From contig CAZCYO010000004.1 in the NCBI GenBank assembly GCA_964503265.1, forward strand, positions 162,157-226,156: a stretch of DNA of 64,000 nucleotides. Direction: 5' to 3'. Both the position numbers and the translations under genes were made by a program. Shown one piece after another: positions 33,301 to 57,379 of this stretch; position 1 is the stretch's first letter, and each line of letters opens with the position of its first letter. This DNA is from an uncultured Gammaproteobacteria bacterium. Lineage in GTDB: Bacteria > Patescibacteriota > Microgenomatia > Levybacterales > UBA12049. The notes beneath the pieces are model-generated. The model was not told the DNA's origin, searched no databases, and saw only the letters and a program-made list of their open reading frames with translations.

Positions 33301-36300
33301 ACACTCACTATTACCGGGACAGTGGCTGTCTCAACGGGTGCGACATATAATAATAATGCAGATTTGAACATTAACGGAGGCGCATTTACAACAGCTGGGA
33401 CAGGTGTCATTAATACGACAAGTGGCACTCCGACTGTCACTATTTCAGGAACGGGCAATCTGGGCAGCGGCAACGGAAATATTACGCTCTACAACCTCAC
33501 CACGACTGGTACGGGCACCACTACCTTCTCTGGTGCAGGTACAAATACGATAAATAATAACGTATCTGTGGGTGCAGGGACGACACTCAATATTAACTCG
33601 ACCGTTGGCATTACGGGAAGCTTAACGAATACAACATCAGGTATTATCGGCACGACATCAGGAACTCCCACAGTTACCGTTTCAGGAACAAGTATTGGAG
33701 GCGGGACGACAGGTGCGATCACCTTCTATAATCTCACCAAGGCCGGAGCCGGCACGACCACATTTTCAAATGGTGGAACAAATACTATCAATAATAATCT
33801 TTCTGTCTCAAATGGCACACTCACCCAAAGTAGTGCACTTACTGTCACCAATGATATTTCCGTCTCAACTGGTGCGACCTTTAACACCAATGCAACACTT
33901 ACTGTAAACGGTGGAGATATGACTACAGCTGGAACTGGTGTCATCAGTACAACCGCTGGAACAGCGACGGTTACAATGACCGGCACAGGAAATATCGGGG
34001 GTGGTGGTGCGGTCACTGTCTATAGCTTGACCAGTAGCAGCGGAACACAAACCATCTCGAGTACTACAACAATCAATAACACACTGACTGTTAATGGGAC
34101 AATTAATGGCTCTTCAAACCTCACAGTCAACGCAGACTTTACAGGAACTGGAACCGTAACAATGAGTGGTGGAACAACAGAACAGCGAGTCGGCGCTGCT
34201 CAAAACTTCGGAACCGATACCGGAAGTAATAACTGGTCATTTGCAACACTTATCTTCTCAAACTCAACTGGCACGTCAAAAACAGTGACGACACAATCTG
34301 GTGGATCTGGCGGAATTACAGTGTCGACACTTCTTCAAGTCGGCAAAGGTGGAGACAGTGCTGTAACGGTTCTTGACGCTGCGAATAGAACATGGACACT
34401 AACAGGTACAAGTGGTACTCCATTTACCGTGCCAAACGGAACATTTACCGCTAGCACATCAACCGTGTCCTATACTGGCAACAATGGTGCTGGGAACACA
34501 ACCATTCGAGATGTTACTTATAATAATTTGACTGTCAATAACGGCTCTGAAACATGGAACCTAGCTTCTTCTCCATTAAACGTCAATGAAAATTTAACAG
34601 TTAGTGCAGGTACGCTAGATTTACAAACAAATAGTGCAAATATCGGTTCAACGGGTGTTGCGAACTCGGGTGGAATATCTGTTTCTGGAACAATCACCCA
34701 AAGCAGTGCTGGAACGACTACTGTTAAAACATCTGCCAGTGGAACAGCCAGTATTGGCGGCTCAGGAACTATAACATTCTATAACTTAACTATAGCACCC
34801 ACGGCTACAAGCACCACGATTATACTAGGAACAGCAGGATCACAAACAATCACAGTTAGTAATAATCTTAGTGTCGGTGACGGGTCAAACGCAGTTACGG
34901 TCAGTGCAAGTACATATAATCCAATTATTGATGTCAATGGTTCTTTTACGACAAATGCAAGTGGAACATTCGTCGCTCCCCAATCCACCTCATTTACGAT
35001 CGCTGGAAGTATGACGAATAACGGAACGTTTAACCACAACTCTGGCACTGTCACACTCGATACCACAGCGACTGCAACACTTGCTGGATCAGGTAATCCT
35101 GCAATTACCTTTAATAATCTCACTGTTACTACACCAAATAAAACCGTTCTTTTCACGTCTACTGAAACATTTCAAACCAATGGGCTACTCACGATAACCG
35201 GAACAACTGGGAATCCAGTGACTATTGATGCAACCACTAATGGAAACCAATGGTTCATTAACCACCAGGGAACTGAAAGTATTACGTATGCAGCTATCCA
35301 AGACTCTGGCTGTGATGGAAGTAGCACCACAATTACCCTTATTACCACAAATACCGATAACGGAACTAACGGAACATGTTGGGCATTTTCAAGTGATATT
35401 TCAGGCGTTATCTATTCTGATGAAGGATCAACCCCATTTGACTGTTCAGGAGCAAATTTAACTATCGATCTGTCAGTTAACGGTGGAACTAACTATACTG
35501 CAACCTGTACATTAAATACTGGTGTCTTTTCTTTCTCAACTATTCCTCAACCAGCAAGTGGAACACCACTAGCATTCTTCGTCGATAATGCAAATGTCGC
35601 ATCAGCCAAAGCAACGACAATTACAAGGGCCCCAACCCCTTCAACTTCTATTACTGGTATCAAACTCTATAAAGATCATGTCGTGTTAACGCATCAGGAT
35701 GCCGGCCCAATCACGAATGCAAACCTCGCAACAGCAGATAATGCGGATGCAGGCATTCGCTATAGTGTGGCAAGTAGTAATCTCACTGTCGATTCTGGAA
35801 TGGAACTGTATGTGTTAAATTCCAAAACATACACTCCTGGTGGAACCGTCACCACTCAGGGATCTTCTGACTTTCAACTCGCAAGTAGCGCCACATCTAC
35901 TCTTGATACTTCGACTAATGCTATTGCTGGTAACGTCGTTGTCGATACCGGGGCAACACTTACCATTAACGCAGATACTACAGTAAGTGGTGGCGGATTA
36001 ACAACTGCGGGAACCGGCATTATTACAAATAGTAGTAACACACCAACAGTTACTGTTTCAGGAACCGGCACTATTGGTGGTGGTGGTGCGGTAACAATTT
36101 TCAACCTAACCAGTAGCAGCGGAACACAAACGCTCTCATCAACGACTCTGATTACCAATACCTTAACTGTTAACGGAACACTTAGCGGCTCTTCCTCACT
36201 TACTGTGTATGGAAATCTGGTTGGTACTGGAACTGTTAGTCATACTGGCACAACCGAACAGCGAATCTCTGGTTCACAAAATTTTGGGACAACAAGTGGC

Positions 36301-37515
36301 AGTAATGCATGGTCGTTTGGAACGCTCATTTTCTCAAATGGCGCTGGGTCATCAAGAACTGTAACAACCCAAACCGGTGGAAGTGGAACAATTACTGTCT
36401 CAACACTTCTGCAAATTGGTAAAGGTGGAGACGCTGCCGTAACTGTGCTTGACGCTGGGAATAGAACATGGACACTCTCGGGAACAAGTGGCACACCATT
36501 TACTCTCCCCCAAGGAACGTTTACTCCTAATACATCAACTGTTAGTTATACCGGAAATAACAGTGGCGGAAATACGACATTTGCGAATACGACATATAAT
36601 AACCTCTCCTGTAATAATGGTTCTGAAACATATAACGCTGCTGCTTCTCCACTCAATGTAAGTGGAGATTTGACAGTAACTGCAGGGACACTTGATATGC
36701 AAACCAACTCACTTAATGTTGGCTCAACATCTGTCGCAAATTCAGGTGATATCGCAGTTGCTGGAACACTCACACAAAGTGCATCGGGAACGACAACTGT
36801 TAAAACATCAGCGGGTGGAACGGCAACTATCGGTGGTGCTGGAACACTCACGTTTTATAATCTTACGATCGCACCAACAGCAGCTGGTGGAACCATCACA
36901 TTAGGCTCTGCGGGAGGTCAAACACTTTCTGTATCCAATAATTTATCTATAGGCGATGGTGCCAATGCTTCAACTATCACAGCAGATGTTAATACACCTA
37001 TTATTGATGTAAATGGATCTTTCACAATAAATGCCAGTGGGATATTTGTCGCTCCTCCCTTCTCTGCATTTAGAATCGCTTCAAATATGACAAATAACGG
37101 CACGTTTACTCCAAACGGTGGGACGGTAACATTTGATACAACAGGTACAAGTATTATCGCTGGATCAGGAAATCCAGCAGTCAATTTTTATAATCTATCT
37201 TCAACTACTGCTGGGAAAACGCTGCAATTTACAGCTGGTGAAACGTTCCAAACAGATGGTAATATAACAATTACTGATGTGAGTATCAACTCGACCAGTA
37301 GTTCACAATGGTTCATTAACCATTTAGGCTCAGAATCAATAACAGGCACCGTCACCATTACGTATTCTGGATGTGATAGTGCCAGCACAAACGTAAGTGC
37401 GATCATCGCAACAGATGGTGGAAATAATGGATCATGTTGGAAATTTGCCGGTCAGGAAGTCGGAAAAAGAATTAAAGGAACTTCAACAATTAATGGAAAC
37501 GTACGGTTTAAATAA
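27352..37515 (+). CDS. giant (3387 aa) Gly/Thr/Ser/Asn-rich surface protein with N-terminal TM anchor and beta-helix-like repeats, including a roughly 1100-aa module present about three times
   Basis: Starts 4 nt after the previous stop, so probably co-transcribed. TM helix MVGIFGVIIIPLIAFWLSF. Repeated GTGTTTFSG, LTIGGTxGTLTxxN and WFINHQGTE..ITY..I.YSGCDG motifs. Confidence 0.8.
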   Translation: MKLLRRLRIIIVYMMKAAQHVLSTLKNPLRRRKHLRLIQVEQHIIEKCLMVGIFGVIIIPLIAFWLSFSIPKYNKTLKVDTYTAKDLEFRHPKTSFSVKEKPTFKVYVGEIKHVDNSPKARLLRTLTLVPRAEADDTKLPDIDVTLHHIVRESDTEEVVIRQSGPDEVEIAVADIKTFKPGKYHISITSGKRNIEQDFTWGVLAVNTNKSIYSPGETAKIGMGLLDDIGRTKCFNYPDPLIHGEVWLTITDPHGKRTELSTKNGLVTGSENCAEHSVTNDADFQTSYKTTTPGMYQMHMIGENQNGKRTLDDYFEVTENQDYVVERTSLPTRIYPSAIYTNTLTVSTKSAFKGQIKETTPASFHITCDSCEVQGADSLNNAKEPADKKATHTIIWNVDWSTGGTHTLTYSFDPPRISPEFYILGPLTIANSSNTVFTEARPWQIASDAVVTWNGNGVDNNWNTAGNWAGGVACTAAANDCTFDGSNPTNGQKNASINVSISVNTISMLATGGGSGYTGIITQGAATTVTTAGTGGITVSAGTFTGSAATITMNTAGVLTVSGGTFNAGTGTFTASTASNTYRIVVSSGTYTGSASGTRTLSGGGIQVTGGTFTGGGATYNLSSTGSNAGLTVSGGTFDGGSGPWTLSSTNATTSGVSHSAGSFTGGSGAWSLSGATGTGYLVTGGTDHTTTTSTLSIVTNLTVTGVTTWTNSASSITFATGGNSTTSCDRVIGTNFILTKTSGTPTYTNGASCSLTFATWSGSTTLASFTNNGIATSSAGAGTLTMGDSTITNDRELTNNATINFQRTFNNSRGILTNSGTITHSTNASTDAGAFTCQNTIGGTFNMSGANSSTFTISDGAGGDCVITSITIVSGNYTTFTNAGTITLGSGTLIIRNGAAGATDGDVINTGSLTIGASATLNIERDFDSSTGTLVNSGTLSFQDNATDDNGILSCSASTTLNGTVGLDKDNGTATFTIGTNCTITNGVAIGTSNNGTFTVNGSLTVASGTLLIRDFDLVVGASGSLSIGASGTIQAERNVTVSGSISNSGTLSFVDNASNDSGTFSCSSIVNGTVNLDKDIGATTFTLGSGCTITNAVAIASSNNGTFTINGSLTLASGTLLVRDANLVIGSSGAFTINSGAVVNAERNWTESSGSVTTNNGTIRFIDNASSDSTTLTCGTGSNLGKVDLNKVTGGNTFVLGSDCTTGNFNRISGIISNPASAYTLKVQGNLMMSSTTNMGGANMTVSMEGSGFQFINFAATSTTFVSKFQVNKTGGSAMLLTNNFTVTGQACTVAAGTFDINGLTFVCNTTGLTVSSGGNLQLQGAETITLPGNPTLSAGSTVTYAGNKNAGANTYALKSWSYSNLTISSSDSATDIFQPAATLSVGNDLTNTAGSLDAKSGSDFAMNVTRDFSNSGTFLAQGGTLTVGRNFTNNGTFTAGTGTLTLNTTTTATLAGSGSPAVTLNNLTIATSDKTVQFTAGQTFRTNGLLTITGTSGHNVIINSTTSSQWFINHQGTEAITYATITYSGCDGASTDITLASSDTNGGNNGACWLFVADMSGTIYTDEGTTPYDCSANNLTINLSVNGGSNATTTCTLNTGVFSFTSVTGPSDGTPFTVFIDSTETPKATLVMLGDGSAIITGLKLYVSHVTLSHLNAGPITNANLATADNADAGIRYSVASSNLTVDSGMELYVLNSKTYTPGGTVTTQGSSDFQLASSATSTLDTATNTIDGDIVVDTGATLNINTTTSINGGAMTTAGTGVITTTSGTPTVTISGTGTIGGGGTVTVYALTVNGTQTLASDTTISNTANVAAGGSLDLGSKNMTVSGGSFTNTSTGIIACSGCSAGTLTMSGTGTLGSGNGNITIYNLTTSGTGTTTFSGGGTNTISNNVTVGTGTTLNINSTTAITGSLANTTTGIIGTTSGTPTVTVSGSTIGGGSGALTFYNLTKAGAGTTTFSGSGTNSITNNLSISNGTFTQSNTLTITGTVAVSTGATYNNNADLNINGGAFTTAGTGVINTTSGTPTVTISGTGNLGSGNGNITLYNLTTTGTGTTTFSGAGTNTINNNVSVGAGTTLNINSTVGITGSLTNTTSGIIGTTSGTPTVTVSGTSIGGGTTGAITFYNLTKAGAGTTTFSNGGTNTINNNLSVSNGTLTQSSALTVTNDISVSTGATFNTNATLTVNGGDMTTAGTGVISTTAGTATVTMTGTGNIGGGGAVTVYSLTSSSGTQTISSTTTINNTLTVNGTINGSSNLTVNADFTGTGTVTMSGGTTEQRVGAAQNFGTDTGSNNWSFATLIFSNSTGTSKTVTTQSGGSGGITVSTLLQVGKGGDSAVTVLDAANRTWTLTGTSGTPFTVPNGTFTASTSTVSYTGNNGAGNTTIRDVTYNNLTVNNGSETWNLASSPLNVNENLTVSAGTLDLQTNSANIGSTGVANSGGISVSGTITQSSAGTTTVKTSASGTASIGGSGTITFYNLTIAPTATSTTIILGTAGSQTITVSNNLSVGDGSNAVTVSASTYNPIIDVNGSFTTNASGTFVAPQSTSFTIAGSMTNNGTFNHNSGTVTLDTTATATLAGSGNPAITFNNLTVTTPNKTVLFTSTETFQTNGLLTITGTTGNPVTIDATTNGNQWFINHQGTESITYAAIQDSGCDGSSTTITLITTNTDNGTNGTCWAFSSDISGVIYSDEGSTPFDCSGANLTIDLSVNGGTNYTATCTLNTGVFSFSTIPQPASGTPLAFFVDNANVASAKATTITRAPTPSTSITGIKLYKDHVVLTHQDAGPITNANLATADNADAGIRYSVASSNLTVDSGMELYVLNSKTYTPGGTVTTQGSSDFQLASSATSTLDTSTNAIAGNVVVDTGATLTINADTTVSGGGLTTAGTGIITNSSNTPTVTVSGTGTIGGGGAVTIFNLTSSSGTQTLSSTTLITNTLTVNGTLSGSSSLTVYGNLVGTGTVSHTGTTEQRISGSQNFGTTSGSNAWSFGTLIFSNGAGSSRTVTTQTGGSGTITVSTLLQIGKGGDAAVTVLDAGNRTWTLSGTSGTPFTLPQGTFTPNTSTVSYTGNNSGGNTTFANTTYNNLSCNNGSETYNAAASPLNVSGDLTVTAGTLDMQTNSLNVGSTSVANSGDIAVAGTLTQSASGTTTVKTSAGGTATIGGAGTLTFYNLTIAPTAAGGTITLGSAGGQTLSVSNNLSIGDGANASTITADVNTPIIDVNGSFTINASGIFVAPPFSAFRIASNMTNNGTFTPNGGTVTFDTTGTSIIAGSGNPAVNFYNLSSTTAGKTLQFTAGETFQTDGNITITDVSINSTSSSQWFINHLGSESITGTVTITYSGCDSASTNVSAIIATDGGNNGSCWKFAGQEVGKRIKGTSTINGNVRFK
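32326..32535 (+). repeat. about 210-nt segment nearly identical (about 99%) to 35701..35910 within giant gene 2, the core of a larger duplicated module
   Basis: gccggcccaatcacgaatgcaaa(t/c)ctcgcaacagcagataatgcggatgc...caactcgcaagtagcgccacatctactcttgatact appears at both sites. Confidence 0.8.
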
Positions 37516-40386: not shown

Positions 40387-40541
40387 GAGCAGAATAATTA
40401 GTATGAACCGTTTCCCTATTCAAAGTAAAGAGATATAGTAAAAACGTGTACGGCTTAATCAGGCTTTAGATTGAAAAACCGTATAAATCTACTCTAACAA
40501 AGAGGAAATAACACTGTCAAGTTTTCGGTGTTTTTTTTGGG

Positions 40542-40612
40542 TGGACCCGAAGGGAATCGAACCCTCTATTTCTCCATGCCATGGAGATGTGTTACCGGTA
40601 TACCACGGGCCC
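40542..40612 (-). tRNA. tRNA-Ala (anticodon GGC)
   Basis: Minus strand reads GGGCCCG-TG-GTAT-ACCGGTA-ACAC-A-TCTCC-ATGGCAT-GGAGA-AATA-GAGGG-TTCGATT-CCCTT-CGGGTCC-A. It has a G3:U70 Ala identity pair, T-loop TTCGATT and anticodon loop AU-GGC-AU. The D-stem has one mismatch. CCA is not encoded. Confidence 0.6.
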
Positions 40613-40691
40613 AAGAGTAGGAGTGAGAAGAAAGCAGTTATTAGCTAGAATAGTTCGCTAACTCCTAGCTTTTATACTCTATCTCCTCTCC

Positions 40692-41975: not shown

Positions 41976-43301
41976 TTAGGATTTCCCGAGGTTATTGATG
42001 AAATCTTCGTTATTTTTGGCTTCAGTTAATTTTTCGACAAAGATTGCTGTTCTTTCATCTGGATTTAACATATCCATCATACGTCGCATTGTAACGATCT
42101 TCTTATAGTTAGCATCGGTAAGAAGTAATTCTTCTTGGCGAGTCCCTGATCTTTCGATATTGATCGCTGGATAAATCCTACGCTCTGCAAGTCGTCGATC
42201 AAGATGCAATTCCATGTTCCCTGTTCCTTTAAACTCTTCATAGACGAGATCGTCAAGTCGTGAACCTGTGTCTACAAGTGCGGTTCCGATGATGGTTAAT
42301 GATCCGCCTTCACTACAGTTACGTGCTGCGCCAAAGAATTTTTTAGCAGGCCAGAGAGCTGCTGGGTCAAATCCTCCAGTTAAGGTTCGTCCACTTGGTG
42401 CAACTGATAAATTGTACGCACGAGCAAGACGTGTAATTGAATCAAGAAGCACAATAACATCTTTTCCCATTTCGACAAGTCTTTTTGCGCGTTCAAGGGT
42501 AATTTCTGCAACTCTCGTCTGGTTTTCTGGTGGTTCATCGAAATTAGATGCGATTACTTCTCCTTTAACAGACATCGATAAATCAGTTACTTCCTCTGGT
42601 CGCTCACCGATAAGAGCAGCCATGAGATGGACTTGTGGGAAATTCTGTGTAATACCTGAAGCAATTTCTTTAAGAATAGTTGTCTTACCTGCTTTTGGTG
42701 GAGAAACGATCATTCCACGCTGCCCAAATCCGATAGGAGCAACTAAATCAATAATACGAGTCGAAAGTGGACGTTCCCCTGTCTCAAGTACTACCATTTT
42801 CTTTGGATAAATCGGAGTTAGATCATCAAACCATGGTCGTTTCATTGACTCTTCTGGTGTTAACCCATTTACTTTCTCTACTTTTAAGAGACCATAATAT
42901 CGCTCTGTGTCTTTAGGTGGACGTGCTACTCCATCGACTGCATCTCCAGGACGAAGCATAAAACGGCGAATCTGTGATTGGGAGATATAAATATCACGAG
43001 CAGATGGCAGAAATTTAGGACGTAAGAATCCGTGTCCTTCTGGTTGGAGATCTAAATATCCCATAACTTCTTCTGTTGGCTGTGAGTTAACTTGATTAAA
43101 GTATGGTTGGTTAGACCCATATCCACCTTGGTCCATACCAGAATCCATTTGCTGATCAGATTGCATCCCATTCATGGGCATAGGTGCACCCATTTGTGAC
43201 TCATCAGGCGCAGCAGAACGAGCACGAGTAGAACGTACTGGTGCTTTACTTACAAACTCAGAGACTGAGGAAGTAGATGGTGCTTTGCGGGTATATGGCA
43301 T
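41976..43301 (-). CDS. rho: transcription termination factor Rho
   Basis: Walker A PPKAGKT. Rho-characteristic block VLLDSITRLARAYN and C-terminal GGSLTIIGTALVDTGSRLDDLVYEEFKGTGNMELHLDRRLAERRIYPAINI. Confidence 0.9.
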   Translation of the reverse strand: MPYTRKAPSTSSVSEFVSKAPVRSTRARSAAPDESQMGAPMPMNGMQSDQQMDSGMDQGGYGSNQPYFNQVNSQPTEEVMGYLDLQPEGHGFLRPKFLPSARDIYISQSQIRRFMLRPGDAVDGVARPPKDTERYYGLLKVEKVNGLTPEESMKRPWFDDLTPIYPKKMVVLETGERPLSTRIIDLVAPIGFGQRGMIVSPPKAGKTTILKEIASGITQNFPQVHLMAALIGERPEEVTDLSMSVKGEVIASNFDEPPENQTRVAEITLERAKRLVEMGKDVIVLLDSITRLARAYNLSVAPSGRTLTGGFDPAALWPAKKFFGAARNCSEGGSLTIIGTALVDTGSRLDDLVYEEFKGTGNMELHLDRRLAERRIYPAINIERSGTRQEELLLTDANYKKIVTMRRMMDMLNPDERTAIFVEKLTEAKNNEDFINNLGKS

Positions 43302-43554: not shown

Positions 43555-44295
43555 ATGGCAAATCTCAAATTTCAAATAGTATTATTACTTATTACTAGCT
43601 ACTTACTACTAGCTTCCACTCCTGTGGCACTTGCAGCAACTACTCCAACGCCTACCTGCAAACCACTCTTTGGAGGTGGCATCTATAATTGTAATGGAAG
43701 TAAACTCACCGTTGATAAAACTGTTCAGGACGTTCAATCAGGCTCATTTGTCCAAAATCTCGGTGTTAACGATGCTCACTACTCTCCAGAAAGCACAGTC
43801 GCATTTAGAATCGTCGTTAAAAACCCAAGCTCAGATACCATAAAAAATATTACGGTAAAAGATACGTTACCACAATACGTTACCTATGCTACTGGAGACG
43901 GTAAGTACGATAGTGCGACAAAAAGCCTAACTATCACACTCGCATCTCTACCTGGTGGCAAAACCCAAACATACGATATAAAAGCAAAAGTTGCAAACAT
44001 TAAAGATCTTCCCCAGGACCAAGCTGTGATGTGTTTAACAAACCAAGTAATCGTTAAAAATGCAGATCAAACGATTTCTGATAACGCACAATTCTGTATT
44101 CAACGACAAGCGACAGTCGGTAACACGACACAGACTACACAAAACACCAGTAAGGGCGGCCAAGTCGTTTATCCTGTAACCGTTAACCAAACAGTCAAAA
44201 AAACGCCACCAACTGGACCTGAAGCACTTGCCTTAATCGCCCTCGCACCTGCAGGATTATTCGGCGCATTCCTCAGACGAAAAGCTGGAAAATAG
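43555..44295 (+). CDS. secreted DUF11/CARDB-like surface protein with C-terminal sorting-signal-like tail (PPTGPE + hydrophobic segment + RRK)
   Basis: Signal peptide. ITVKDTLPQYVTYATGDG repeat-domain motif. C-terminus KTPPTGPEALALIALAPAGLFGAFLRRKAGK. Paralog at 56657..57349. Confidence 0.65.
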   Translation: MANLKFQIVLLLITSYLLLASTPVALAATTPTPTCKPLFGGGIYNCNGSKLTVDKTVQDVQSGSFVQNLGVNDAHYSPESTVAFRIVVKNPSSDTIKNITVKDTLPQYVTYATGDGKYDSATKSLTITLASLPGGKTQTYDIKAKVANIKDLPQDQAVMCLTNQVIVKNADQTISDNAQFCIQRQATVGNTTQTTQNTSKGGQVVYPVTVNQTVKKTPPTGPEALALIALAPAGLFGAFLRRKAGK

Positions 44296-44508
44296 GTAAC
44301 GATTTATCAACTCTTCTCTAATCCCCCTCCTATATCGTATAATCCCTTCACTCTTATGATCTCTTTGTCACACATGCGATAAAAAAGAACTGAGAGTATT
44401 CGTTCTTTAACAGTGTACAGAGAGACAATTTCAAGGATCACACGTTGTAATGAAGTGTTTCATCACAATGTGTGGTTCTTGACTTTATTTCAGTCAAAGG
44501 AGGTAGAC

Positions 44509-45021
44509 ATGATCTGGCGATTTTCACTGGTAGCATTACTACTAGCGGCACTTTCAGGGTGTGGTAACCCTACCCCGACAGCACAACCGCCGACTGTAGC
44601 AATCACACCGACTATCCTCGCGTCGTCGCCAATCCCGACATTCACTCCGACTCGAGTGCTGCCATCCCAGATCCCCACGTTCACACCGACTGTGATGAGG
44701 ATCAGCGAGCCTTACTGCGTCGAAAACGTCCCGAATACAACCCAGTATGAGGCGACAGCTCAGGAAGTTAAGATCTCCATTACCATCAGCAACTGCGGCG
44801 TAAATCCTTGGGAAAACACACGAGCGATTCGTGTCAGTGGCACAACAGTCTTTCCCACCCCTCTGGATACTATTCCGTTCACAAAATCTGGAGAACAACG
44901 CCGGTTAACACTGCGAGGAAAGAAACCCAAAGTTGGCTTCTATGAGGCCACTTACACTATCTCTGGTCCGTTGGGGACTTCTCAAAGCTTCTTCACCGTG
45001 AACTTTGAGATTAAACCCTAG
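44509..45021 (+). CDS. small lipoprotein with Pro/Thr-rich linker
   Basis: AAGGAGG 7 nt upstream of the ATG at 44509. Lipobox LLAALSGC. Noticeably higher G+C than neighbours. Confidence 0.5.
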   Translation: MIWRFSLVALLLAALSGCGNPTPTAQPPTVAITPTILASSPIPTFTPTRVLPSQIPTFTPTVMRISEPYCVENVPNTTQYEATAQEVKISITISNCGVNPWENTRAIRVSGTTVFPTPLDTIPFTKSGEQRRLTLRGKKPKVGFYEATYTISGPLGTSQSFFTVNFEIKP

Positions 45022-45084: not shown

Positions 45085-47373
45085 CTATTTGGCTCTATCT
45101 TGATCGCCTTGCGGCGGCCCAGGTCTTTGTTCTCTCTGTACACTATCTTCCCTATCCCTATCTGCTTGCTCTTCTCTATCCCTCTCAGGTGTCGCTCGAT
45201 CAAGTGTCGTCATTACCTTTGTATAGCGTTCTTTCGAAAGTCGTTTTACTTTATCCATATTCTGTGACTTAGATCTCGGAAGAGGTAGTGTATAGCAATG
45301 GAATGGTGACTGGGTAATACCATCAATATATAATTTAATAATTGCTTGATAATTTCCAAGTGCAAGTAAATCCTCAGGTTTAAACCGCTCTGAATATTCT
45401 TTTCCTAAATACTGCGCATCATCTGCGCCTACTAAAAATGTCATTAATGTGCCTGCATTTCCGAAAATAGCTGCTCGAACATCTTCTGGGATTTGGGCGA
45501 TATACTGATTCGCTAAGATCAAACAGAGACGGAATTTTCGTGCCTCAGACAGAATTTTAATGAACGACGTCGTAGCAAAGTTTTGAAACTCGTCCACATA
45601 CAAAAAGAAGTCTCGTCGCTGTTCCTCAGGAATTGACACGCGGTTCATCGCGGCCAGCTGTACTTTCGTGATGATCATGGCTCCAAGTAGCGCTGCATTA
45701 TCCTCTCCGAGGTACCCCTGAGACAGATTAAGAATAAGAATCTTTCCTTCATTCATCACTTTCTCAATATCAATACTCGACTTTGGATGCCCGATGATGT
45801 TTCGAATTCTGGTACTACTCGTGAACTGTCCGACTTTATTCTGAATTGGTGAAATAGCCTCAACACGGAGTTTATCTGTCATCTTTTCAAATTCATTTAC
45901 CCAGAAACTATGGAGAACTGGATCTTTCAGTCGTTCAATTACTTTCGCACGAAATGTCGGATTTCCAAGCATTTCAGGGACCATAAGAAGTGTGGGATTT
46001 GGCATCTCAAGGACCGATACGATCGTGTTACGGAAAATATACTCTAAGCGTGGACCCCACGAATCACCATATAACTTCTTAAAAATCGCGATAATACCTG
46101 ATGCGACGAGTTCTTTCTGGGATTCATCAGTAATCTCAAGTGGATTTAAGGCAAATGAGCGCTCATTATCGGCTGGATCCATGTAGACGACATCATTTAC
46201 TCGGTATGACGGAATGTACTGGAGAATATGCTCGCATAAATCACCGTGTGGATCGATGACACACAGTCCTTCCCCATTTCGAATGTCTGAGATCGCCATA
46301 TTTGCGATAAACGTAGACTTCCCAGTTCCTGATTTTCCGATGACATAAACGTGGCGGCGACGATCAGTTCGTTTGATGCCAAAGACTGATTGTTTATTTT
46401 TATATTCAGTTCTCGCAAAAAAATTAACATCTTTTTTCTCTTCTTCAGTCATTGACTCGGCCACGGGCAAGTTTTCCGGCGCTTGAGAGAGAATCGTTTT
46501 GTGCCAGGAAATGTTCGGGATCGTCGATAGCTTCATGGTCGGGAAATGAAACAGTGTGGCTAATTCCTGGACATTGAAGACATGAATATTCGTCATAATA
46601 CTTTTCTTACGATGAAGCATTTCATTCACAAAACGAGTTTTCTCCCATGGAAGCACTTTTCGAATCACTAACCCATTTCCTGAAGGATGATTAAACGATG
46701 AGAAACTCGTCCCTACTTCATATAGATAGTGGGCTGAGCGTTCCTTCGTCTCAGCATTTACTGCGACACGAATGGATACTCCAAATCCAGCTGACGCTGC
46801 TTTTTGGGTGATTATTGCCGCATATGGATTGGCAACTGCTGCACCACTGCCGTCAGTATGTTTGGCTGAAGCTGTCGAATTCGCTGCTTTTTGCCAAGAC
46901 TGAGAAATGGGAACGAGTAAAAATTGAACTGAAACTGTATCTCCCATCTGGCTTTTCGCGAGTATCCCAAGCACTGATGAGAGTGGATCCACTTCTTTAA
47001 ACTCACTAAAGTAGCGAATCGGATAGACATAACTATGCGTCGTTTTAAGCCACGCTGTCGAGAGTGTGTCCTTTTTCGCAAACATTTCAGGCAAGTAATC
47101 TGGGACTTTCGCAAGCATAGCTTTTGTATATTGGGAGATAAGTTGGCTTTCGATAAATGATTGGTAGGCAGTCGGCACAGAAACGTAGAAATGGATAATT
47201 TGCTCTGATACTGCTATTTCAAGCGTTAGTGGAATTCCTTTTTTCCATAACAAATAAAAGCGGTGACGCATGTTCGTCAAACTCGCTAAAAATTGCACCA
47301 TGGATTCAGGCGTTTCCTCACCAGTACGAGATGTTTTAATCTCAAGCAGAACTCGATCAGTTGGAGTAGGCAT
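45085..47373 (-). CDS. TraD/VirD4-like P-loop ATPase (type IV coupling-protein / DNA-transfer family) with acidic Arg/Asp/Glu-rich C-terminal tail
   Basis: Walker A VIGKSGTGKST. Downstream blocks YVDEFQNF (Walker B-like) and LILANQYIAQIPEDVRAAIFGNAGT typical of TrwB/TraD/VirD4-type ATPases. A HerA/FtsK-like ATPase cannot be excluded. Confidence 0.5.
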   Translation of the reverse strand: MPTPTDRVLLEIKTSRTGEETPESMVQFLASLTNMRHRFYLLWKKGIPLTLEIAVSEQIIHFYVSVPTAYQSFIESQLISQYTKAMLAKVPDYLPEMFAKKDTLSTAWLKTTHSYVYPIRYFSEFKEVDPLSSVLGILAKSQMGDTVSVQFLLVPISQSWQKAANSTASAKHTDGSGAAVANPYAAIITQKAASAGFGVSIRVAVNAETKERSAHYLYEVGTSFSSFNHPSGNGLVIRKVLPWEKTRFVNEMLHRKKSIMTNIHVFNVQELATLFHFPTMKLSTIPNISWHKTILSQAPENLPVAESMTEEEKKDVNFFARTEYKNKQSVFGIKRTDRRRHVYVIGKSGTGKSTFIANMAISDIRNGEGLCVIDPHGDLCEHILQYIPSYRVNDVVYMDPADNERSFALNPLEITDESQKELVASGIIAIFKKLYGDSWGPRLEYIFRNTIVSVLEMPNPTLLMVPEMLGNPTFRAKVIERLKDPVLHSFWVNEFEKMTDKLRVEAISPIQNKVGQFTSSTRIRNIIGHPKSSIDIEKVMNEGKILILNLSQGYLGEDNAALLGAMIITKVQLAAMNRVSIPEEQRRDFFLYVDEFQNFATTSFIKILSEARKFRLCLILANQYIAQIPEDVRAAIFGNAGTLMTFLVGADDAQYLGKEYSERFKPEDLLALGNYQAIIKLYIDGITQSPFHCYTLPLPRSKSQNMDKVKRLSKERYTKVMTTLDRATPERDREEQADRDREDSVQREQRPGPPQGDQDRAK

Positions 47374-47627
47374 ACAATATAATTTACAATTCCTAATTTC
47401 TAATTTCTAATCAATACAAGACACAGTAAACAGCTACAGGTAAATCATTTGAGTTTGATTAAAAATTTTACATGTTAAATTATAAATTCTGTCTTTATTC
47501 TACTCTACTCCCCATTATTTGACAAACGTTTGGCCAATTGAAAACAACCAACCAGGTAATCCCCCTCTTGCATTTTTGATTTATATAGTATAAACATAAT
47601 ATACATTACCAGGTTTATCTGATGAGC

Positions 47628-47655
47628 TTGACAAAGTCCTATAATATGCTATACT
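47628..47655 (+). promoter_or_regulatory. conserved promoter module copy (TTGACA-16-TATACT) driving the leader that contains element A and the SLH gene
   Basis: gcTTGACAaagtcctataatatgcTATACT. Confidence 0.55.
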
Positions 47656-47710
47656 CTGCTGACGTACGCTAAATCATTCTCTCCTCGTGAGGGATTTTTT
47701 TATCGCTACT

Positions 47711-47825
47711 GCACATTAACCCTCCTACGCTTAAAGCTACGGAAGGGTGAACATGCTAAAGTACCATTTTGCTAATAAGAAAGGGCTTGCCCTCTCGAAG
47801 CTTTAGCGAAGTGGGGCACATTAAC
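47711..47825 (+). repeat. element A of the gcacattRac-bounded repeat family (about 96-nt body between 10-nt direct repeats), in the 5' leader of the SLH gene
   Basis: gcacattaac at 47711..47720 and again at 47816..47825. Body is ccctcctacgc-[gcttaaagc hairpin]-tacggaagggt...gggcttgccctctcgaagctttagcgaagtgggg. Confidence 0.6.
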
Positions 47826-48034
47826 AAGAGAGAGTGTATTTTAGAAAAGAATAGTTTTCTAGGTACTACCTGCAGTGTTTCGAATCCACTTCGAGATAGC
47901 GCTGGTGGTGCCTGGAAAGGAGCTAGCAAAGAAAGGAGGAAACATTAGATACGACAAGTCGTCGCATCTTATTCCCTGCTTTCCACGCGCCACTAACTAA
48001 CGTCGTTACTGTATAAATTCGGAGGCGCCAAATT

Positions 48035-48667
48035 ATGTTTCGCCGATTCGCACCCCTAGCGCTCGCGTTGATCCTCACCCTGGGTACTGTTACATCCGCA
48101 CTCGCGGGTGGCTTATACCCGGACGTGTCGGACAACGACAGCCGCATAGTGGCGATCCAGTGGATCACCTCTATGGGAGCCATGACTGGTTACACCGACA
48201 AGCGGTTTGGCGTTAATGACAACGTCACCCGCGGGGAGATGGCAAAAATCCTCGGGGTTATCCTCGGCGTTCAGCCCCAAATCGGGGCTACGTGCTTCAA
48301 CGATATGGGATCCTACGATCCTACGCTGCGAGCGTACGCCTGTAAGCTGGCCCAAATGGGCCTACTGAAAGGCTATGCCGACGGCCGATTCGGGCCAAAC
48401 GATCCAATCTCGCTAACGCAGATGATATCACTCATCGTGAGGGCGAAAGTCGCCTCTGGCGACTGGGTAGCCGTCACGACGGATGATCCCTCGATCTACC
48501 CGAACGTAACGACCATGAGTACCAGGCTCGAGATACTGACGTATCTCGAGCATCAGATTCAGGTGCCCAAGTCGCCCAATGTCCACGGGAATCTGAATGG
48601 AGCGTACGCACCGGTGACTCGCGGCGATGCCGCTTGGTACTTAATGCTTAGCTTCTACAAGACGTAA
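48035..48667 (+). CDS. secreted protein with S-layer-homology (SLH) domains; first gene of the high-GC mosaic region
   Basis: Signal peptide ALALILTLGTVTSALA. SLH-like segments GYTDKRFGVNDNVTRGEMAKIL and GYADGRFGPNDPISLTQMISLIVRA. G+C far above the window background. Confidence 0.6.
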   Translation: MFRRFAPLALALILTLGTVTSALAGGLYPDVSDNDSRIVAIQWITSMGAMTGYTDKRFGVNDNVTRGEMAKILGVILGVQPQIGATCFNDMGSYDPTLRAYACKLAQMGLLKGYADGRFGPNDPISLTQMISLIVRAKVASGDWVAVTTDDPSIYPNVTTMSTRLEILTYLEHQIQVPKSPNVHGNLNGAYAPVTRGDAAWYLMLSFYKT

Positions 48668-48678
48668 GTTCACGGCTA

Positions 48679-48722
48679 GTCCGCCACATAGTGGGGCCTA
48701 CCGGCTCTACTGTGTGGCGGAC
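48679..48722 (+). terminator. long terminator-like hairpin after the SLH gene
   Basis: gtccgccacatagtgg / ctactgtgtggcggac forms a roughly 15-bp stem 12 nt after the stop codon, followed by a C/T-rich tract. Confidence 0.5.
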
Positions 48723-48902
48723 AACGCCACTTTCTTCTCTAAATACAGATTTTTAATACCTTTCTATGAACGAGTAATAATTGCATTACTCCCTTCAAAC
48801 AAAAACTAAATAAAATCGAGTTACTCCTCTCTCTTGTTATAATTTTCCTCATTTGACATCACTTCTCCTCTTTTCTATGCTTATTCTAGGTAGTATTTTC
48901 TT

Positions 48903-48932
48903 CTTGACAAAGTCTTATAGGAGATACTATAC
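48903..48932 (+). promoter_or_regulatory. conserved promoter module copy (TTGACA-18-TATACT)
   Basis: tcTTGACAaagtcttataggagatacTATACT. Confidence 0.55.
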
Positions 48933-49024
48933 TGCCGCTACGTTTTATTATCACTGAATATCTTCATTGCTTGATATATCCGTGACATAAAACAGCATCG
49001 TTACCACCAGCTCAAGCTAAATAA

Positions 49025-49093
49025 GGTTTACCCCTAACGTAGCTTTAGCCCCGATTGAATCGGGGTTAGCGAAGTGGGGCTCTTTAACAAGGC
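49025..49093 (+). repeat. element B, a 3'-half copy of the same family carrying an inserted 16-nt palindrome
   Basis: ggtttacccctaacgtagctttagc[cccgattgaatcggggttagc]gaagtggggctctttaacaaggc. Compare the 3' half of C. Confidence 0.5.
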
Positions 49094-50131
49094 ACACAGA
49101 TTGATATTTTTTGTTTTCGAGAGGAAAACGAGAAAAGGATGACATATTCCCCGTCAGCTAGTAGCTTACAAAGTTGTGTAAATTACTAGCTGATTTGTGG
49201 GAGTATACGATTTGGCGTGATCGTCTACGATCCCAGATCAGTAGAGACTGTCCCCAGCCTCTTCTCCATCCATCCTTCCTCCTCATTTCCTCCTCTATCC
49301 GGGAAGCAGGGAACCCAACCCTGCTTCCCCCCCCTTCTCTTTTGAGAAGATTTACGGCTTAGGAGGTGCCACACTCCGAAAGCTTCAAAAGTAATTTCAT
49401 TACTTTTCCAAGTGTATAAAGGCACTTGTTATTCATATCTGGCTTCTTGCTAGATATGGTGTGTGGGCAGGTGGTTCCCGACACCTGCCCCACTCTTTTC
49501 TGCCATCTTCTTCTCGCCCCGGCGTGGTTTTTACCAAAGCCGGGACGAGATTATACATACTGAGGACCTTCTCATCACTCTATCCATTAGACTCGCACCG
49601 CGGGTCAGGATGGCGGGTTACGACCCGTTACGATGAGAAGTCCTCAGAAGGCCCGGATTCGTCCGAACGATCCCCGGGGGAGTTTTTTCCCCGGAGATTA
49701 GCCTGTTTCAGCTTTCGGAGACAATATCGTCACCGGAGCTGGACTTGTATCTAGCAGGAACTTCTCGCATCACGAGAAACGCACCGGCATAGTAGCCGGT
49801 ACTTTCTCACGTGAGTGAGACCTGCACCTATCTGACGTCGTCAGGAATCCTGGGGTCGGCCTTCTGGCCGACCCCACAATCTCTTACGAGAAGCGAAAGA
49901 AAAAAACGATCTATCATCTGTGTGCCTTACTTTTTTATAACCCCACGCTTCAATTACCGCCTATTTCCCGAATTACGGCCATTATTTGGTACGTTTTCCC
50001 CGACTCGGAGATTTTCATCATAGTCGGTCAGCTATAGCTTTTCTTCTGGTATTCCGTAACGCTCCCCGCCTCGATCATCTTTACTATATAGAAATTTACT
50101 CGTCTCACCACAAGAGCAGAAACCGGACGAC

Positions 50132-50160
50132 TTGACAAAACTATAGGACTGTGATATGCT
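50132..50160 (+). promoter_or_regulatory. conserved promoter module copy (TTGACA-17-TATGCT)
   Basis: cTTGACAaaactataggactgtgaTATGCT. Confidence 0.45.
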
Positions 50161-50464
50161 TCATTTCTAGTTGTGGTTTGGGATATGTGTTGGAGTATCA
50201 GATAACCCTCACGACTTTATAACAGTAAAACGCCCAACATATATCCCCCGACCGTAACAGGCGGGTTTTTTTGTACCTTTTTGCATTTGCGCAGAAAGAA
50301 AACAAATAACTCGGAGCACTTTAACAAGGCAACGGATAAAAAATTAATTGATACTTCTTTACTAAAAGGAGTTCCTGATGCGTACTGTCCACAATATGAT
50401 GGTGCGCGCCAGGAGCTCCTGAATGTGAGGGAGCTAGACAGAAAACTCTTGAAAGGAGTTACTC

Positions 50465-50704
50465 GTGAAAAACATACTCTCAGTTCTCCACTTCATCGCT
50501 GCATTTCTTGCGGTGATCGCAGTGTCGGGAACAATATTCCTCATACTCTTTGGTATTCATGTAGAAGTCCATATTGTCTGCTTTACCGCAGGAATATCAG
50601 GGCTATTCGCTTTCACGATCACGCTTCTCTATGTAGTGTTCGCACTGCCATCTGGAAACCTGGTGTCATCGGAAGTTCCGACCGCGCCTGATAACTCCCG
50701 GTAG
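50465..50704 (+). CDS. small two-TM membrane protein (high-GC)
   Basis: GAAAGGAG upstream. A GTG at about 50462 may be the true start. Two hydrophobic helices. Confidence 0.35.
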   Translation: MKNILSVLHFIAAFLAVIAVSGTIFLILFGIHVEVHIVCFTAGISGLFAFTITLLYVVFALPSGNLVSSEVPTAPDNSR

Positions 50705-50733
50705 TTAGAGCCGCACAGAAAGGATAGAGACAC

Positions 50734-51195
50734 ATGCCACATCCAACATCGAGGCCAACAAGCAGGTTCGCGCTCGTCGCGAGCGTGTTTGCCTTAGTCG
50801 CGAGTATCTCAGTCTTCATCTTTTCCTTCAACGCTAACACAGCCGCGAAGGAGGAATATAACCGCGTCGCAGCACATGCCACGGAGGTCTCCTCTCGGCT
50901 GTTTGAAAACCGCATTAGCGGTAATCTGACTAAGGGGGTGCTCCTCCAGTACTGTGCTATCAGCTGTGATAGCGCCGACTTTACGGAGATCACAGTAGAT
51001 GGCTTCACCGTCGTCAAGTACACGCCTCCCTTTCGGGGAGCATGTGCGCAGATCAGGCGAAGCGGATACATTATCACAGCGCCCTCAATTTCGGTTGAGA
51101 GTCGAGATATGTATCCCCTCAATGAACCACAAATCGCTTACTGCGGGACGTGGTTCTTCGGAGCCAAATTTCCGGAACAGCCAGTACGCAAGTAG
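50734..51195 (+). CDS. membrane-anchored Cys-containing extracytoplasmic protein (high-GC)
   Basis: RBS AAAGGA. N-terminal TM ALVASVFALVASISVFIF. Confidence 0.4.
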   Translation: MPHPTSRPTSRFALVASVFALVASISVFIFSFNANTAAKEEYNRVAAHATEVSSRLFENRISGNLTKGVLLQYCAISCDSADFTEITVDGFTVVKYTPPFRGACAQIRRSGYIITAPSISVESRDMYPLNEPQIAYCGTWFFGAKFPEQPVRK

Positions 51196-51273
51196 CGATA
51201 CTGCTGTTTTCACCCTCTCTAGAGACCCGCGTGGGGGATCTACCGACACACTATCTCTATTCTAGGAGGTCAC

Positions 51274-51483
51274 ATGCAACCATCCGCACAACAAAAACCT
51301 ACTCCCGCAGTGACTGCGGGTAGGATCGCCGAGACGGCGATCCAGACCTGCGCCATACATGGCATTCAAATGCAACCCATAAGGGGTTGGTGGAATGCCA
51401 CTAAGCGTGAGTATGTCAGCGGTGATGTGTGCCCGGAGTGCGAGAAGAGCGAAGGCATCTACACGCCAAAGCTCGTCCAGTAA
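51274..51483 (+). CDS. small Cys-containing protein (possible zinc ribbon, CAIHG...CPEC)
   Basis: RBS TAGGAGG 5 nt before ATG; high-GC. Confidence 0.35.
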   Translation: MQPSAQQKPTPAVTAGRIAETAIQTCAIHGIQMQPIRGWWNATKREYVSGDVCPECEKSEGIYTPKLVQ

Positions 51484-52100
51484 CCCTCAGGAGGCAACAT
51501 GCTATTTCTTGCACTGACGACAGACCCAGAGTATATCCCGATTGATTCGGGAGAAACTCTCGTGTACGCCCTTGGTGTCCTCTTGGTTTGCTGGCTCTTT
51601 TACGAGATCGGCCACTACCGCCGTTAGCATACGGTGGGATGAAGGCTCGTTCTGGTTAACATATCCGTTGCCTTCATCTCTTATTAGTACAATACTGTAA
51701 CGATAAGAGATGAAGTTTTTATGAGAAATAGCTATGATTTCTTCTTCAATTGCGAAGAATGGAAGACTAGTTATTTCATTGCACATTTACAAGGCAACCT
51801 TATACGTATAACTAACTCTCTTCAGATACAAAAAGAGGGCTCATATATGCCGCTTTTACTGTTCTCGGGAAACCAGCAGTACTCCAAAAGCGGCAGGTAT
51901 GAGTCCTCAGAAATGGTCTGGGGAAAAGAAGAAAGGATACCTTCGTGTTCGTGCCGTTTGACCTGATTTCATCGAACTCAGGCACGGATTCTCAAGTGTA
52001 TCTCCTCGTGCTCGCTGCACTAGGAGCATATCTGACAATCGAAGACATCATTCGGAATTGGCGCAAGTAGCGCTAAGAAGACATCTCTACAAGGAGGCAC

Positions 52101-52576
52101 ATGACCACAAAGCAGATGCTCATCATCGCGGCCGTGATCGGTACGCCGATCGGGCTCTGGCTGATCTTCGCGATCATCATCTTCGATGTGTTGACGAAAA
52201 AAGCCCTGAAAGGGTTTGAATTCGTCATCCGACACGCGATGGGCGGCCACTAGCCGTTAGAAAGGAGCATACTATGCCCGACACTGTGAGCATCCTACTC
52301 ACGATCGCGATCGCAGCCATCATCATCGTGGCAATTTGTTTGTTTCGATCTGAAGATGTGAGTAATACCTCACACATCAGCGGCGCTGAGAAGCGCTAAA
52401 GAAAGGAGCGACCCATGTTCGCACGAATCTGGCTGTGGCTCGCACTCGCCCTCGGCCTCGATGACGGCGTGATCTACTCGGATCCTGGGGTGAATTTGGG
52501 CTACGGCTCAATCAACCCCACTCCTGTCAAGTGGAGCGACTCACTTCGTGAGCTGCTCGACGACGGAAAAATCTAG
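52101..52576 (+). other. array of three consecutive small hydrophobic-peptide ORFs (52101..52253, 52274..52399, 52415..52576; 50, 41 and 53 aa), each with its own AAGGAG(G) RBS
   Basis: Each ORF has a strong SD at -6 to -9, one predicted TM helix, high G+C and tight spacing. Confidence 0.35.
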
Positions 52577-52837
52577 CCTTCCTTTCTTCACCATGTTATA
52601 CCTAACTCATTTTCCAACACCCTTTTCCCTAAGACCGAGGCATTTTCGCTTCGTTTCACTGCAGTTTTCTGTAGCGATTTCTTCCGGATTGGGGGGATGG
52701 CAGATGTTTCAGGTTGCCTTACCCCCTATGGCGAGAAATCATTCTCGATATAGGGGGTGAATTTATTAGATTAGAATTGTTTTCTTACTTCTTCAATTGC
52801 GAAGAAAAAGAAAACGGTTATTTCGCACATTAACCCT

Positions 52838-52967
52838 CCTACGCATAAATTCTAAACAGAATTTAGCTACGGAAGGGCAAGACAGTACGCCATTAAGCTA
52901 CTTCTTTGATAGGTTTACCCCTAACGAAGCTTAAGCGAAGTGAGGCACATTAACAAAGCATACGAAT
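52838..52967 (+). repeat. element C, a full copy with an extended hairpin (taaattct-aaac-agaattta)
   Basis: gcacattaac at 52838..52847 and 52958..52967. Upstream conserved hairpin cttcttcaattgcgaagaa at 52790..52808. Confidence 0.6.
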
Positions 52968-53106
52968 ACAGATTTCAGCGCGAGGAGAGGATATCTATCA
53001 CCTCTTTCCGCTGAAATCTGAAAAAATCAGATGAACGATCACTTCGTGAAAGGACTGCCTATGGCTGACTGATCTACTGTCGGATTGTTTAGATAAGGAG
53101 GTTCAC

Positions 53107-53682
53107 GTGTCTTCTCGAAAGGCTCACGCACTCTTTGCTATACTTCTGCTCCTGATCGCATTCATGCCAAGTCCGGCCGCAGCGAGCAACGATGCTCAAT
53201 TCGGTCGGCCGATCGTCGCTCCACAAATCTTGTGGCGCGAAGCGCAGCTCACAACCTGCGCGAACGTCTCTTCGGCGACACCGACATGTATCGTCATCGA
53301 CCTCATGGTCGATAACGATGGCAGCCACATTCAAGAGTTCTCGCTTACCCGCGAGGACGCTCGGAAGAATCGCCGGGCGATCCAAGTTTCGGTGTCTGAG
53401 GACACTAAAGGACTTCGGATCACGGACACCAGCGCGACATTTTCTCGCACCATCAACGCAAAAAATGCCGTGGACGGCAAGGAGATCAAGATCAAAGTCG
53501 ATCTCACCTGGCGTCAGTCAGGACCAGAACGCCCCTTCGAAGGGCCACAGATTCCTGAAGAACCCCGCTTCTTGCGTCAAGCACGCGTGAGCGGGACAAT
53601 CCAGATCGGATCTGAAAAACCGATCACCGTCTCAAGCAACGCTGGCGTTCTCATCCGGTGCATCGCGACACCGGCACAATAG
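53107..53682 (+). CDS. secreted hypothetical protein (GTG start, high-GC)
   Basis: RBS AAGGAGG. Signal peptide ALFAILLLLIAFMPSPAAAS. Confidence 0.45.
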   Translation: MSSRKAHALFAILLLLIAFMPSPAAASNDAQFGRPIVAPQILWREAQLTTCANVSSATPTCIVIDLMVDNDGSHIQEFSLTREDARKNRRAIQVSVSEDTKGLRITDTSATFSRTINAKNAVDGKEIKIKVDLTWRQSGPERPFEGPQIPEEPRFLRQARVSGTIQIGSEKPITVSSNAGVLIRCIATPAQ

Positions 53683-56649: not shown

Positions 56650-56656
56650 CCCATTT

Positions 56657-57349: not shown

Positions 57350-57379
57350 GCACGTATATTGCCAAAACGACTCGTTCAC

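Follow-up and report, generated by a model that had tools for sequence, protein, structure and literature searches.

The question raised by this locus is how two small surface proteins that end in the same way are held at the cell surface. A 64,000-nucleotide stretch of contig CAZCYO010000004.1 (assembly GCA_964503265.1, positions 162,157 to 226,156; hereafter the window) encodes two such proteins, W1 and W2, each with a C-terminal tail made of a short T-P-x-T-G motif, a hydrophobic helix and a basic end. These tails are probably sorting signals of the LPXTG-class sortases in a lineage-specific spelling, T-P-x-T-G, usually with [PA]-E next, which would serve wall anchoring in uncultured, ultra-small Levybacteria-type members of the candidate phyla radiation (CPR). 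The evidence comes from the anatomy of the tail, its conservation across one protein family, its reuse on others and its exchange with a canonical LPXTG motif; it is set out in that order below, followed by the competing explanations, the passenger domain, the genomic context and the relation to known sorting signals.

Anatomy of the C-terminal tails

Translation of 43555..44295 and 56657..57349 reproduces exactly the endings quoted in the original prediction, KKTPPTGPEALALIALAPAGLFGAFLRRKAGK for W1 and KNTPSTGPEMLPLIGLIGSGFIGSLLRKRTSK for W2 (Table 1). The two proteins are paralogs (39% identical, E 2e-41), and the tail that they have in common is therefore inherited rather than independently acquired. 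Both also match Pfam PF01345 (DUF11, recently renamed CLIPPER), W1 at 50.9 bits and W2 at 61.9 bits against a gathering score of 24.6, with a single CLIPPER/DUF11 Ig-like domain in each. The pentapeptide starts 30 residues before the stop in W1 and W2 alike, and about 17 hydrophobic residues separate the following P-E from the basic end; in W2, residues 206-224 read PEMLPLIGLIGSGFIGSLL and RKRTSK occupies residues 225-230. The N-termini are hydrophobic and, judging by their sequence, would be cleaved at an ALA/A or AFA/D site. The layout that had been recognised earlier as that of a C-terminal sorting signal is thus complete, with signal peptide, motif-bearing linker, helix and basic tail. In a six-frame scan of the window, xPxTG followed by a hydrophobic segment and a basic tail was found in W1 and W2 only, and the two giant ORFs (open reading frames) of the window (3998 and 3387 aa) have no TPxTG-type tail.

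Conservation in the CLIPPER family

A search with W2 returned 230 homologs, of which the 120 listed are mostly 210-275 aa long and, where their source is named, come from Levybacteria or unclassified Patescibacteria (CPR/Microgenomates). Every one of these 120 ends in [TSQ]P.TG[PA]E followed by a hydrophobic stretch and a basic cluster. Across 121 aligned sequences, mostly about 40-50% identical to W2, the P, T and G of the motif, the Glu two positions after the Gly (E223 in W1) and a Gly within the membrane helix (G237 in W1) are invariant, and the first T is present in 98%; W1 residues L240 and R241 are conserved in at least 90% of the family. Mean column identity in a 67-sequence alignment (A1) is just 36%, so the tail matches the structural core of the domain in conservation, comparable values within the domain being limited to a few structural residues. 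By this pattern of sequence conservation, the motif behaves like an enzyme recognition site, under strong constraint and not by chance. At the first motif position, 256 tails gave T 226 times, A 9, S 7, N 5, I 4, Q 3 and V 2, and L not once. A (T/S)KGG-x-V-(Y/F)-P element in the linker is also well kept in the CLIPPER family (T, K, G and G each 92-97% conserved, the Lys 93%), and a hydrophobicity heuristic detected an N-terminal hydrophobic segment in 194 of 208 full-length members.

At the DNA level, the pattern TPxTGPEM[LF] occurred at 68 places in 596 Gb of species-representative genomes. Half of these (34) are C-terminal tails, 30 of them with some 195-270 residues of their ORF preceding the motif and four truncated where the locus ends; the other 34 are scattered chance matches, roughly the expected number, and none of them is followed by a membrane helix and basic tail. 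The metagenome-assembled genomes (MAGs) with the C-terminal tails bear the titles Levybacteria/Levyibacteriota, Patescibacteria, "bacterium" and "uncultured Gammaproteobacteria". The idea that the motif is characteristic of its lineage is borne out by these searches, in which it forms a conserved module across Levybacteria-type homologs.

Two side observations concern the same family. Contigs from MAGs titled "uncultured Gammaproteobacteria bacterium" carry the Levybacteria-type gene at a guanine plus cytosine (GC) content of 0.31-0.47 (loci L004, L005, L007, L011, L013, L015, L019, L027, L030, L034, L059 and L063), and P0090, the protein of the L030 contig, shows the synteny of rho with the CLIPPER gene on a JGI contig (L071); these bin labels are probably wrong. 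In a subset of members (P0003, P0013, P0016, P0026, P0030, P0033, P0036, P0057 and P0120; loci L005, L007, L013, L022 and others), the chain runs on beyond the basic stop-transfer residues to a conserved cytoplasmic end, K(N/S)x(E/K)GGEK.

The tail as a portable module

With a profile of the tail alone (34 positions), an exhaustive hidden Markov model search of 1.84 billion cluster representatives (E <= 0.001) retrieved 331 proteins. All 150 of those listed matched at their extreme C-terminus and were at most 297 aa long, and 17 of 144 newly returned representatives had no CLIPPER-domain match, several of them being short and probably fragmentary. Among the other carriers, family 2 (P0141, P0230, P0259 and relatives) has an N-terminal domain without a Pfam match, and in profile-profile comparison (hhalign) it aligns with the CLIPPER family over the last 45 residues alone. 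Its neighbourhood also differs, with the order trigger factor, DUF5660, DUF763, family-2 gene and LigT. With P0259 as query, 14 members of family 2 were retrieved. T-P-x-T-G is present in every one of them, and the hydrophobicity heuristic detected an N-terminal hydrophobic segment in all 13 full-length ones. Behind the motif comes A or P and then E, G or D, in the pairs AE, AG, AD and PE. The core of the motif is therefore TPxTG, and "PE" is a family-level feature, contrary to the earlier view of TG-PE as a hybrid of LPXTG and PEP signals. The (T/S)KGG-x-V-(Y/F)-P element of the linker is present in most family-2 members as well, and is lacking in P0268-P0271 and in family 3.

Family 3 came to light among unrelated proteins with Pro/Thr-rich linkers that the P0259 search also retrieved. 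Its known endings are TPKTGPEA (P0342), TPKTGPSA (P0310) and LPSTGAGA (P0294). P0342 and P0294 are full-length homologs (E 5e-24) in which TPKTG stands column for column with a canonical LPSTG; this alignment is the most direct evidence that TPxTG occupies the LPXTG position. The distribution of LP and TP within family 3 is drawn from this one homologous pair together with P0310, which shares the tail alone (BLASTP), and a search with the family-3 N-terminal domain found two proteins only.

The tail is also found with no globular passenger. Four mini-proteins of 117-138 aa (P0160, P0203, P0253 and P0262) consist of a signal peptide, a CxxYGGGxxC hairpin, the TKGG element and a TPxTGPE tail, with a Pro/Thr linker in place of the CLIPPER domain; P0229 has a core that resembles theirs and an atypical N-terminus. 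The original prediction had proposed looking for further proteins with this ending, and many exist, non-homologous ones included. Read from these sequences, the tail is a portable module, shared by the CLIPPER proteins, at least two further families and mini-proteins that have no domain.

A different ending was seen in the related loci. The sequence [LF]PPTGG, about 10 further residues, a membrane helix and a basic tail terminate Pro/Thr-rich secreted proteins at L086 16018..16968, L087 9239..10219 and L103 13651..14484 (the same as L006 5999..6832), and the L086 gene lies among Pro/Thr-rich ORFs directly downstream of the ATPase. Such tails may represent a second sortase-type signal in the same organisms.

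Candidate enzyme and alternative explanations

When isolated tails were compared with NCBIfam, LPXTG_anchor was the sorting model matched most often (18 of 54 tails at E <= 10, best E 3.8e-4), the others being MYXO-CTERM (4), PEP_CTERM (3, best E 0.072) and several models with one or two tails each. The motif had been described as neither LPXTG nor PEP, a description that should be amended: the P, T and G of LPXTG are all invariant, the replacement of Leu by Thr is the sole change, and LPXTG_anchor was matched far more often than PEP_CTERM. The assignment to a sortase rests on the anatomy of the signal, its modular reuse, the exchange of LP for TP and the published occurrence of the enzymes, a sortase family having been reported from over half of CPR genomes and as "near ubiquitous in Microgenomates" (PMC6744442). 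In the pathway proposed here, the Sec system would export the precursor by way of its N-terminal signal peptide, and the hydrophobic helix near the C-terminus, together with the Arg/Lys-rich stop-transfer residues, would keep it in the membrane, with the extended linker displaying TPxTG on the outer side. A sortase of the same membrane, whose gene would lie elsewhere in the genome, would cut between Thr and Gly (T220 and G221 in W1, by analogy with LPXTG) and move the Thr carboxyl onto a peptidoglycan precursor, and the single CLIPPER domain would thereby become covalently attached to the wall.

Several points weigh against this assignment. The original prediction that the window contains no sortase gene proved accurate, since regular expressions for catalytic motifs of the TLxTC type, a Pfam scan and phmmer were all negative; Pfam (E <= 0.001) found no sortase, exosortase or other sorting-enzyme family in the 29 larger window ORFs or ORF segments. 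Neither did motif expressions or phmmer reveal a sortase in about 1.5 Mb of related loci, all of which sample the same few neighbourhoods (the phmmer query was S. aureus SrtA, run against ORFs of at least 110 aa). The cut-off of LPXTG_anchor (TIGR01167), 15.9 bits, is not reached, W2 scoring 9.1 bits and W1 giving no match. The invariant Glu past the Gly and the invariant helix Gly of the CLIPPER family are not required by canonical LPXTG signals, and their sequence conservation hints at extra constraints. There are few carriers per genome neighbourhood, and a pattern of many substrates to one enzyme is not apparent. To our knowledge, no CPR sortase has been biochemically characterised. Our literature search found nothing on what Microgenomates sortases recognise or which proteins they anchor. 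As for other candidate processing enzymes, ORFs of 331 and 332 aa downstream of the family gene (L071, L072) were considered and rejected, being mutually unrelated and without Pfam matches in the precomputed tables.

Some of these points would suit a plain, uncleaved type-I membrane anchor, in which TPxTG[PA]E is a juxtamembrane element (a helix cap, or a glycosylation or interaction site) and the protein stays tethered to the membrane. A hydrophobic helix and a basic tail suffice for membrane retention, neither the window nor the related loci scanned yielded a sortase, and the invariant Glu and helix Gly suggest constraints that reach past a pentapeptide. Such an anchor does not account for three mutually unrelated passenger families that each keep P, T and G invariant at a set distance from the helix, nor for a homolog in which canonical LPSTG takes the place of the motif, nor for the preferential match to LPXTG_anchor, and we regard it as unlikely. 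Recognition by another enzyme (an exosortase, archaeosortase, rhombosortase or a member of an undescribed family), with G-P-E as a PEP-like element, would accord with the weak isolated-tail matches to PEP_CTERM, MYXO-CTERM and cyano_PEP (2 of 54, best E 0.0021) and with the fact that the sole sorting-model match of W1 is to MYXO-CTERM, at 10.2 bits and below the cut-off of 20. However, the tails have no second Pro after the Glu and lack the Cys that is invariant in MYXO-CTERM, family 2 varies at P-E (AG, AD, AE) while keeping TPxTG, LPXTG_anchor is dominant among the matches, the Pfam scan of the window ORFs gave no such enzyme family, and no literature linking these enzymes to CPR was found; processing of this kind is highly improbable.

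An alternative closer to the sortase assignment is that the enzyme links these proteins covalently to one another, in a fibre that would be a minimal pilus, instead of or before wall anchoring, the motif Thr being joined to a Lys in the following subunit such as that of the TKGG element. The passenger has a CnaA-like isopeptide-type fold as in Gram-positive pilins (PMC12617251), the RrgB isopeptide fimbrial domain is weakly recognised in one homolog, P0045 (21.5 bits, cut-off 30), and the high conservation of the TKGG Lys in the CLIPPER family is compatible with a role as acceptor. Yet the related loci scanned showed neither a pilin motif of the YPKN type nor an adjacent class C sortase, the Lys is replaced in P0230 (RRG) and P0274 (AGG), the element as a whole is lacking in P0268-P0271 and family 3, and the Lys lies just about 17 residues from the motif, all of which makes polymerisation quite improbable. 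The reading as LPXTG-class sorting signals for wall anchoring is therefore preferred. A bolder extension of it would posit a dedicated Levybacteria sortase that has changed its preference at the first motif position from Leu to Thr, with TPxTG as a lineage-wide code orthogonal to LPXTG and with the core rho-linked, single-domain and isopeptide-stabilised protein as main client, forming the principal covalent surface layer or a minimal fibre by which these episymbionts would contact their hosts; this extension is rather doubtful. Were it true, the TPxTG code could offer an orthogonal ligation tag, and an enzyme preferring Thr-Pro over Leu-Pro could provide an orthogonal sortase for protein ligation.

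The passenger domain

The AlphaFold2 (AF2) model of W1 has a mean predicted local distance difference test (pLDDT) score of 83.6. It shows, from the N-terminus, a signal helix (residues 2-19), a small hairpin bracketed by cysteines, a beta-sandwich (52-183), a disordered region (184-222) and a helix (223-244), so that the predicted membrane helix begins two residues past the motif Gly. The closest structure in the PDB is 9IFR, a CLIPPER domain (E 2.5e-6, TM score 0.66 on the target), whose fold is CnaA-like and is cross-linked internally by a Lys-Asn isopeptide bond (PMC12617251). In W1 numbering, K55, N90, N163, C160 and C181 are invariant in the family and D103 is conserved in at least 90%. 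The four conserved cysteines together with K55, N90, N163 and D103 would fit the isopeptide and disulfide chemistry described for that structure (PMC12617251), and by this analogy the domain probably contains a Lys-Asn isopeptide bond and two disulfides as stabilising cross-links. The A1 profile gave no significant match against PDB sequences.

Table 1. Features of W1, W2 and two neighbouring genes; positions are those of the window.
Feature	Position	Strand	Size or residues	Basis and remarks
W1 precursor, small CLIPPER/DUF11 surface protein with putative TPPTG sorting signal	43555..44295	+	246 aa	
W1 signal peptide (MANLKFQIVLLLITSYLLLASTPVALA then A)	43555..43635	+	1-27	sequence reading; AF2 helix 2-19; predicted cleavage site
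W1 CLIPPER (CnaA-like Ig) beta-sandwich	43708..44103	+	52-183	AF2 pLDDT 96-98
W1 disordered linker with (T/S)KGG-x-V-(Y/F)-P element	44104..44202	+	184-216	pLDDT 49-59, without secondary structure
W1 TPPTG, proposed sortase recognition/cleavage motif	44203..44217	+	217-221	P218, T220 and G221 invariant
W1 P-E and hydrophobic membrane-spanning segment PEALALIALAPAGLFGAFL	44218..44274	+	222-240	AF2 helix 223-244
W1 basic stop-transfer tail RRKAGK and stop codon	44275..44295	+	241-246	sequence
W2 precursor, paralogous CLIPPER/DUF11 surface protein with putative TPSTG sorting signal	56657..57349	+	230 aa	
W2 TPSTG	57257..57271	+	201-205	sequence
W2 P-E, hydrophobic segment MLPLIGLIGSGFIGSLL, basic tail RKRTSK and stop codon	57272..57349	+		sequence
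rho, conserved divergent neighbour of the family gene	41976..43301	-		Rho_RNA_bind and ATP-synt_ab domains; synteny
VirD4/TrwB-like coupling-protein ATPase (DUF87), frequent downstream neighbour	45085..47373	-		domain scan

Genomic context

By its position, W1 is the ortholog of the gene that this family has in Levybacteria, next to a divergently transcribed rho. Of 77 related loci whose flanks reach far enough, 69 have rho immediately upstream, and past rho the related contigs carry a LysM/M23 peptidase and a TPR protein. The DUF87 ATPase lies within 2.5 kb downstream in 28 of 72 loci, and the arrangement DUF8128-DUF87-TrwB is seen in related contigs. Between W1 and the ATPase, the window has a 202-aa ORF (44413..45021), Pro/Thr-rich and with an internal lipoprotein-like signal (LAALSGC), that has no homolog in the related loci.

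The setting of W2 is of another kind. The gene lies within a stretch of about 15 kb (47400..62100) that looks like an insertion specific to the window, since other Levybacteria loci have the order CLIPPER gene, ATPase and family 2 glycosyltransferase (GT2). Apart from W2, the ORFs tested in this stretch have no homolog in the related loci, and the GT2 gene just beyond it (62118..62933) has one. GC content is 0.48-0.56 at 48-56 kb and 58-62 kb and about 0.41 elsewhere, with W2 itself (0.40) between the high-GC blocks. The stretch contains few long ORFs, those scanned having no Pfam match except for an SLH-domain protein (48035..48667). An rRNA operon was considered for the high-GC part at 48-56 kb and rejected for want of an Rfam match, and the whole of 47400..62100 gave no match to rRNA or any other Rfam family. 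The stretch is possibly foreign DNA or an assembly chimera.

Further features of the loci are recorded here in their own right. A recurrent neighbour of about 920-1310 aa ends in (F/Y)(L/W)PQYLEYLGF, a membrane helix and basic residues; it occurs in L003, L007, L011, L030, L036, L052, L071-L077 and L142-L165 (for example L071 12614..16291), has no precomputed Pfam match where tables exist and adjoins a glycosyltransferase in the annotated loci. The window has the GT2 gene without that protein. The giant ORFs of the window are located at 15351..27347 (3998 aa) and 27352..37515 (3387 aa), and the first opens with a phage-integrase SAM-like domain (Phage_int_SAM_1, E 1e-19), which is odd for a protein of some 4000 residues; the same N-terminal domain is found in proteins of 1372-1435 aa (as called, running off the locus ends) at the corresponding position of related loci. 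Seven consecutive plus-strand ORFs of 281-477 aa at 4811..13093, between leuS/comEA/comEC and the giant ORFs, have no Pfam match at E <= 0.001. The sole RNA gene detected in the window is a tRNA-Ala(GGC) at 40538..40613 on the minus strand, between the genes of the TPR protein and the LysM/M23 peptidase.

Relation to known sorting signals

The novelty of these tails lies in a conserved variant that current annotation models miss; it is mechanistically expected, and the same pentapeptide has precedents in Firmicutes. LPXTG_anchor matched none of 10 full-length proteins from the carrier families, homologs appear under source names such as DUF11, TIGR01451-family or hypothetical and never as LPXTG-anchored, and the literal Leu that the strict model expects at the first motif position is not there. 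Current LPXTG models thus under-call such proteins in CPR genomes. With TPxTG, likely clients of a sortase can be looked for by sequence in one CPR lineage, and a core surface protein is singled out in bacteria whose presumed way of life is attachment to other cells. An earlier paper refers briefly to "sortase motifs" on surface proteins of CPR bacteria (PMC5220378), and no description of a CPR sortase recognition motif was found in the literature.

The closest likeness is to the LPXTG signal (TIGR01167/PF00746), with which the tails have in common a pentapeptide about 30 residues from the C-terminus, the invariant P, T and G, the hydrophobic helix and the basic tail. Substrates of the sortase A type are alike also in the acidic residue soon past the Gly, the signal peptide and the Ig-like isopeptide-type passenger. 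The difference lies in the spelling, TPxTG[PA]E, with Thr at the first position in 98% of the CLIPPER family, Leu in none and S, Q, A, N, I or V in a few, and in the organisms, which here are CPR/Patescibacteria with a presumptive enzyme. PEP-CTERM/exosortase signals resemble the tails in their tripartite C-terminal layout and in a Pro-Glu near the helix. They differ in that P-E-P (TIGR02595) is replaced here by G-P-E-[MAS], in that P-E is not conserved across the carrier families, and in that matches to their models are sporadic and sub-threshold. As to the passenger, the CLIPPER fibrillar adhesins represented by 9IFR are alike in the Pfam match over threshold, the top structural match, the conserved Lys, Asn and Asp, which would fit an intramolecular isopeptide bond, and the probable disulfides, whereas there the domain forms a tandem stalk in a giant adhesin and here a single domain makes up a protein of about 230 aa, with an extra N-terminal CxxxYGGGxxC hairpin.

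Departures from Leu at the first position have been described in Firmicutes. SrtB of C. difficile uses (S/P)PXTG (PMC4155245), I/TPKTG motifs have been reported from a conjugative-transposon island of C. difficile, together with an additional sortase (PMC6814731), and TPKTG was predicted as the anchor motif of MGAS2096_Spy1156, a protein of a streptococcal integrative and conjugative element (PMC1949102). These signals resemble the tails of W1 and W2 in their non-Leu xPxTG motif and in the same tripartite layout. The Firmicutes cases, however, are sporadic, those with TPKTG and I/TPKTG being on mobile elements, whereas in this CPR lineage the motif marks a core syntenic protein family and at least two others.

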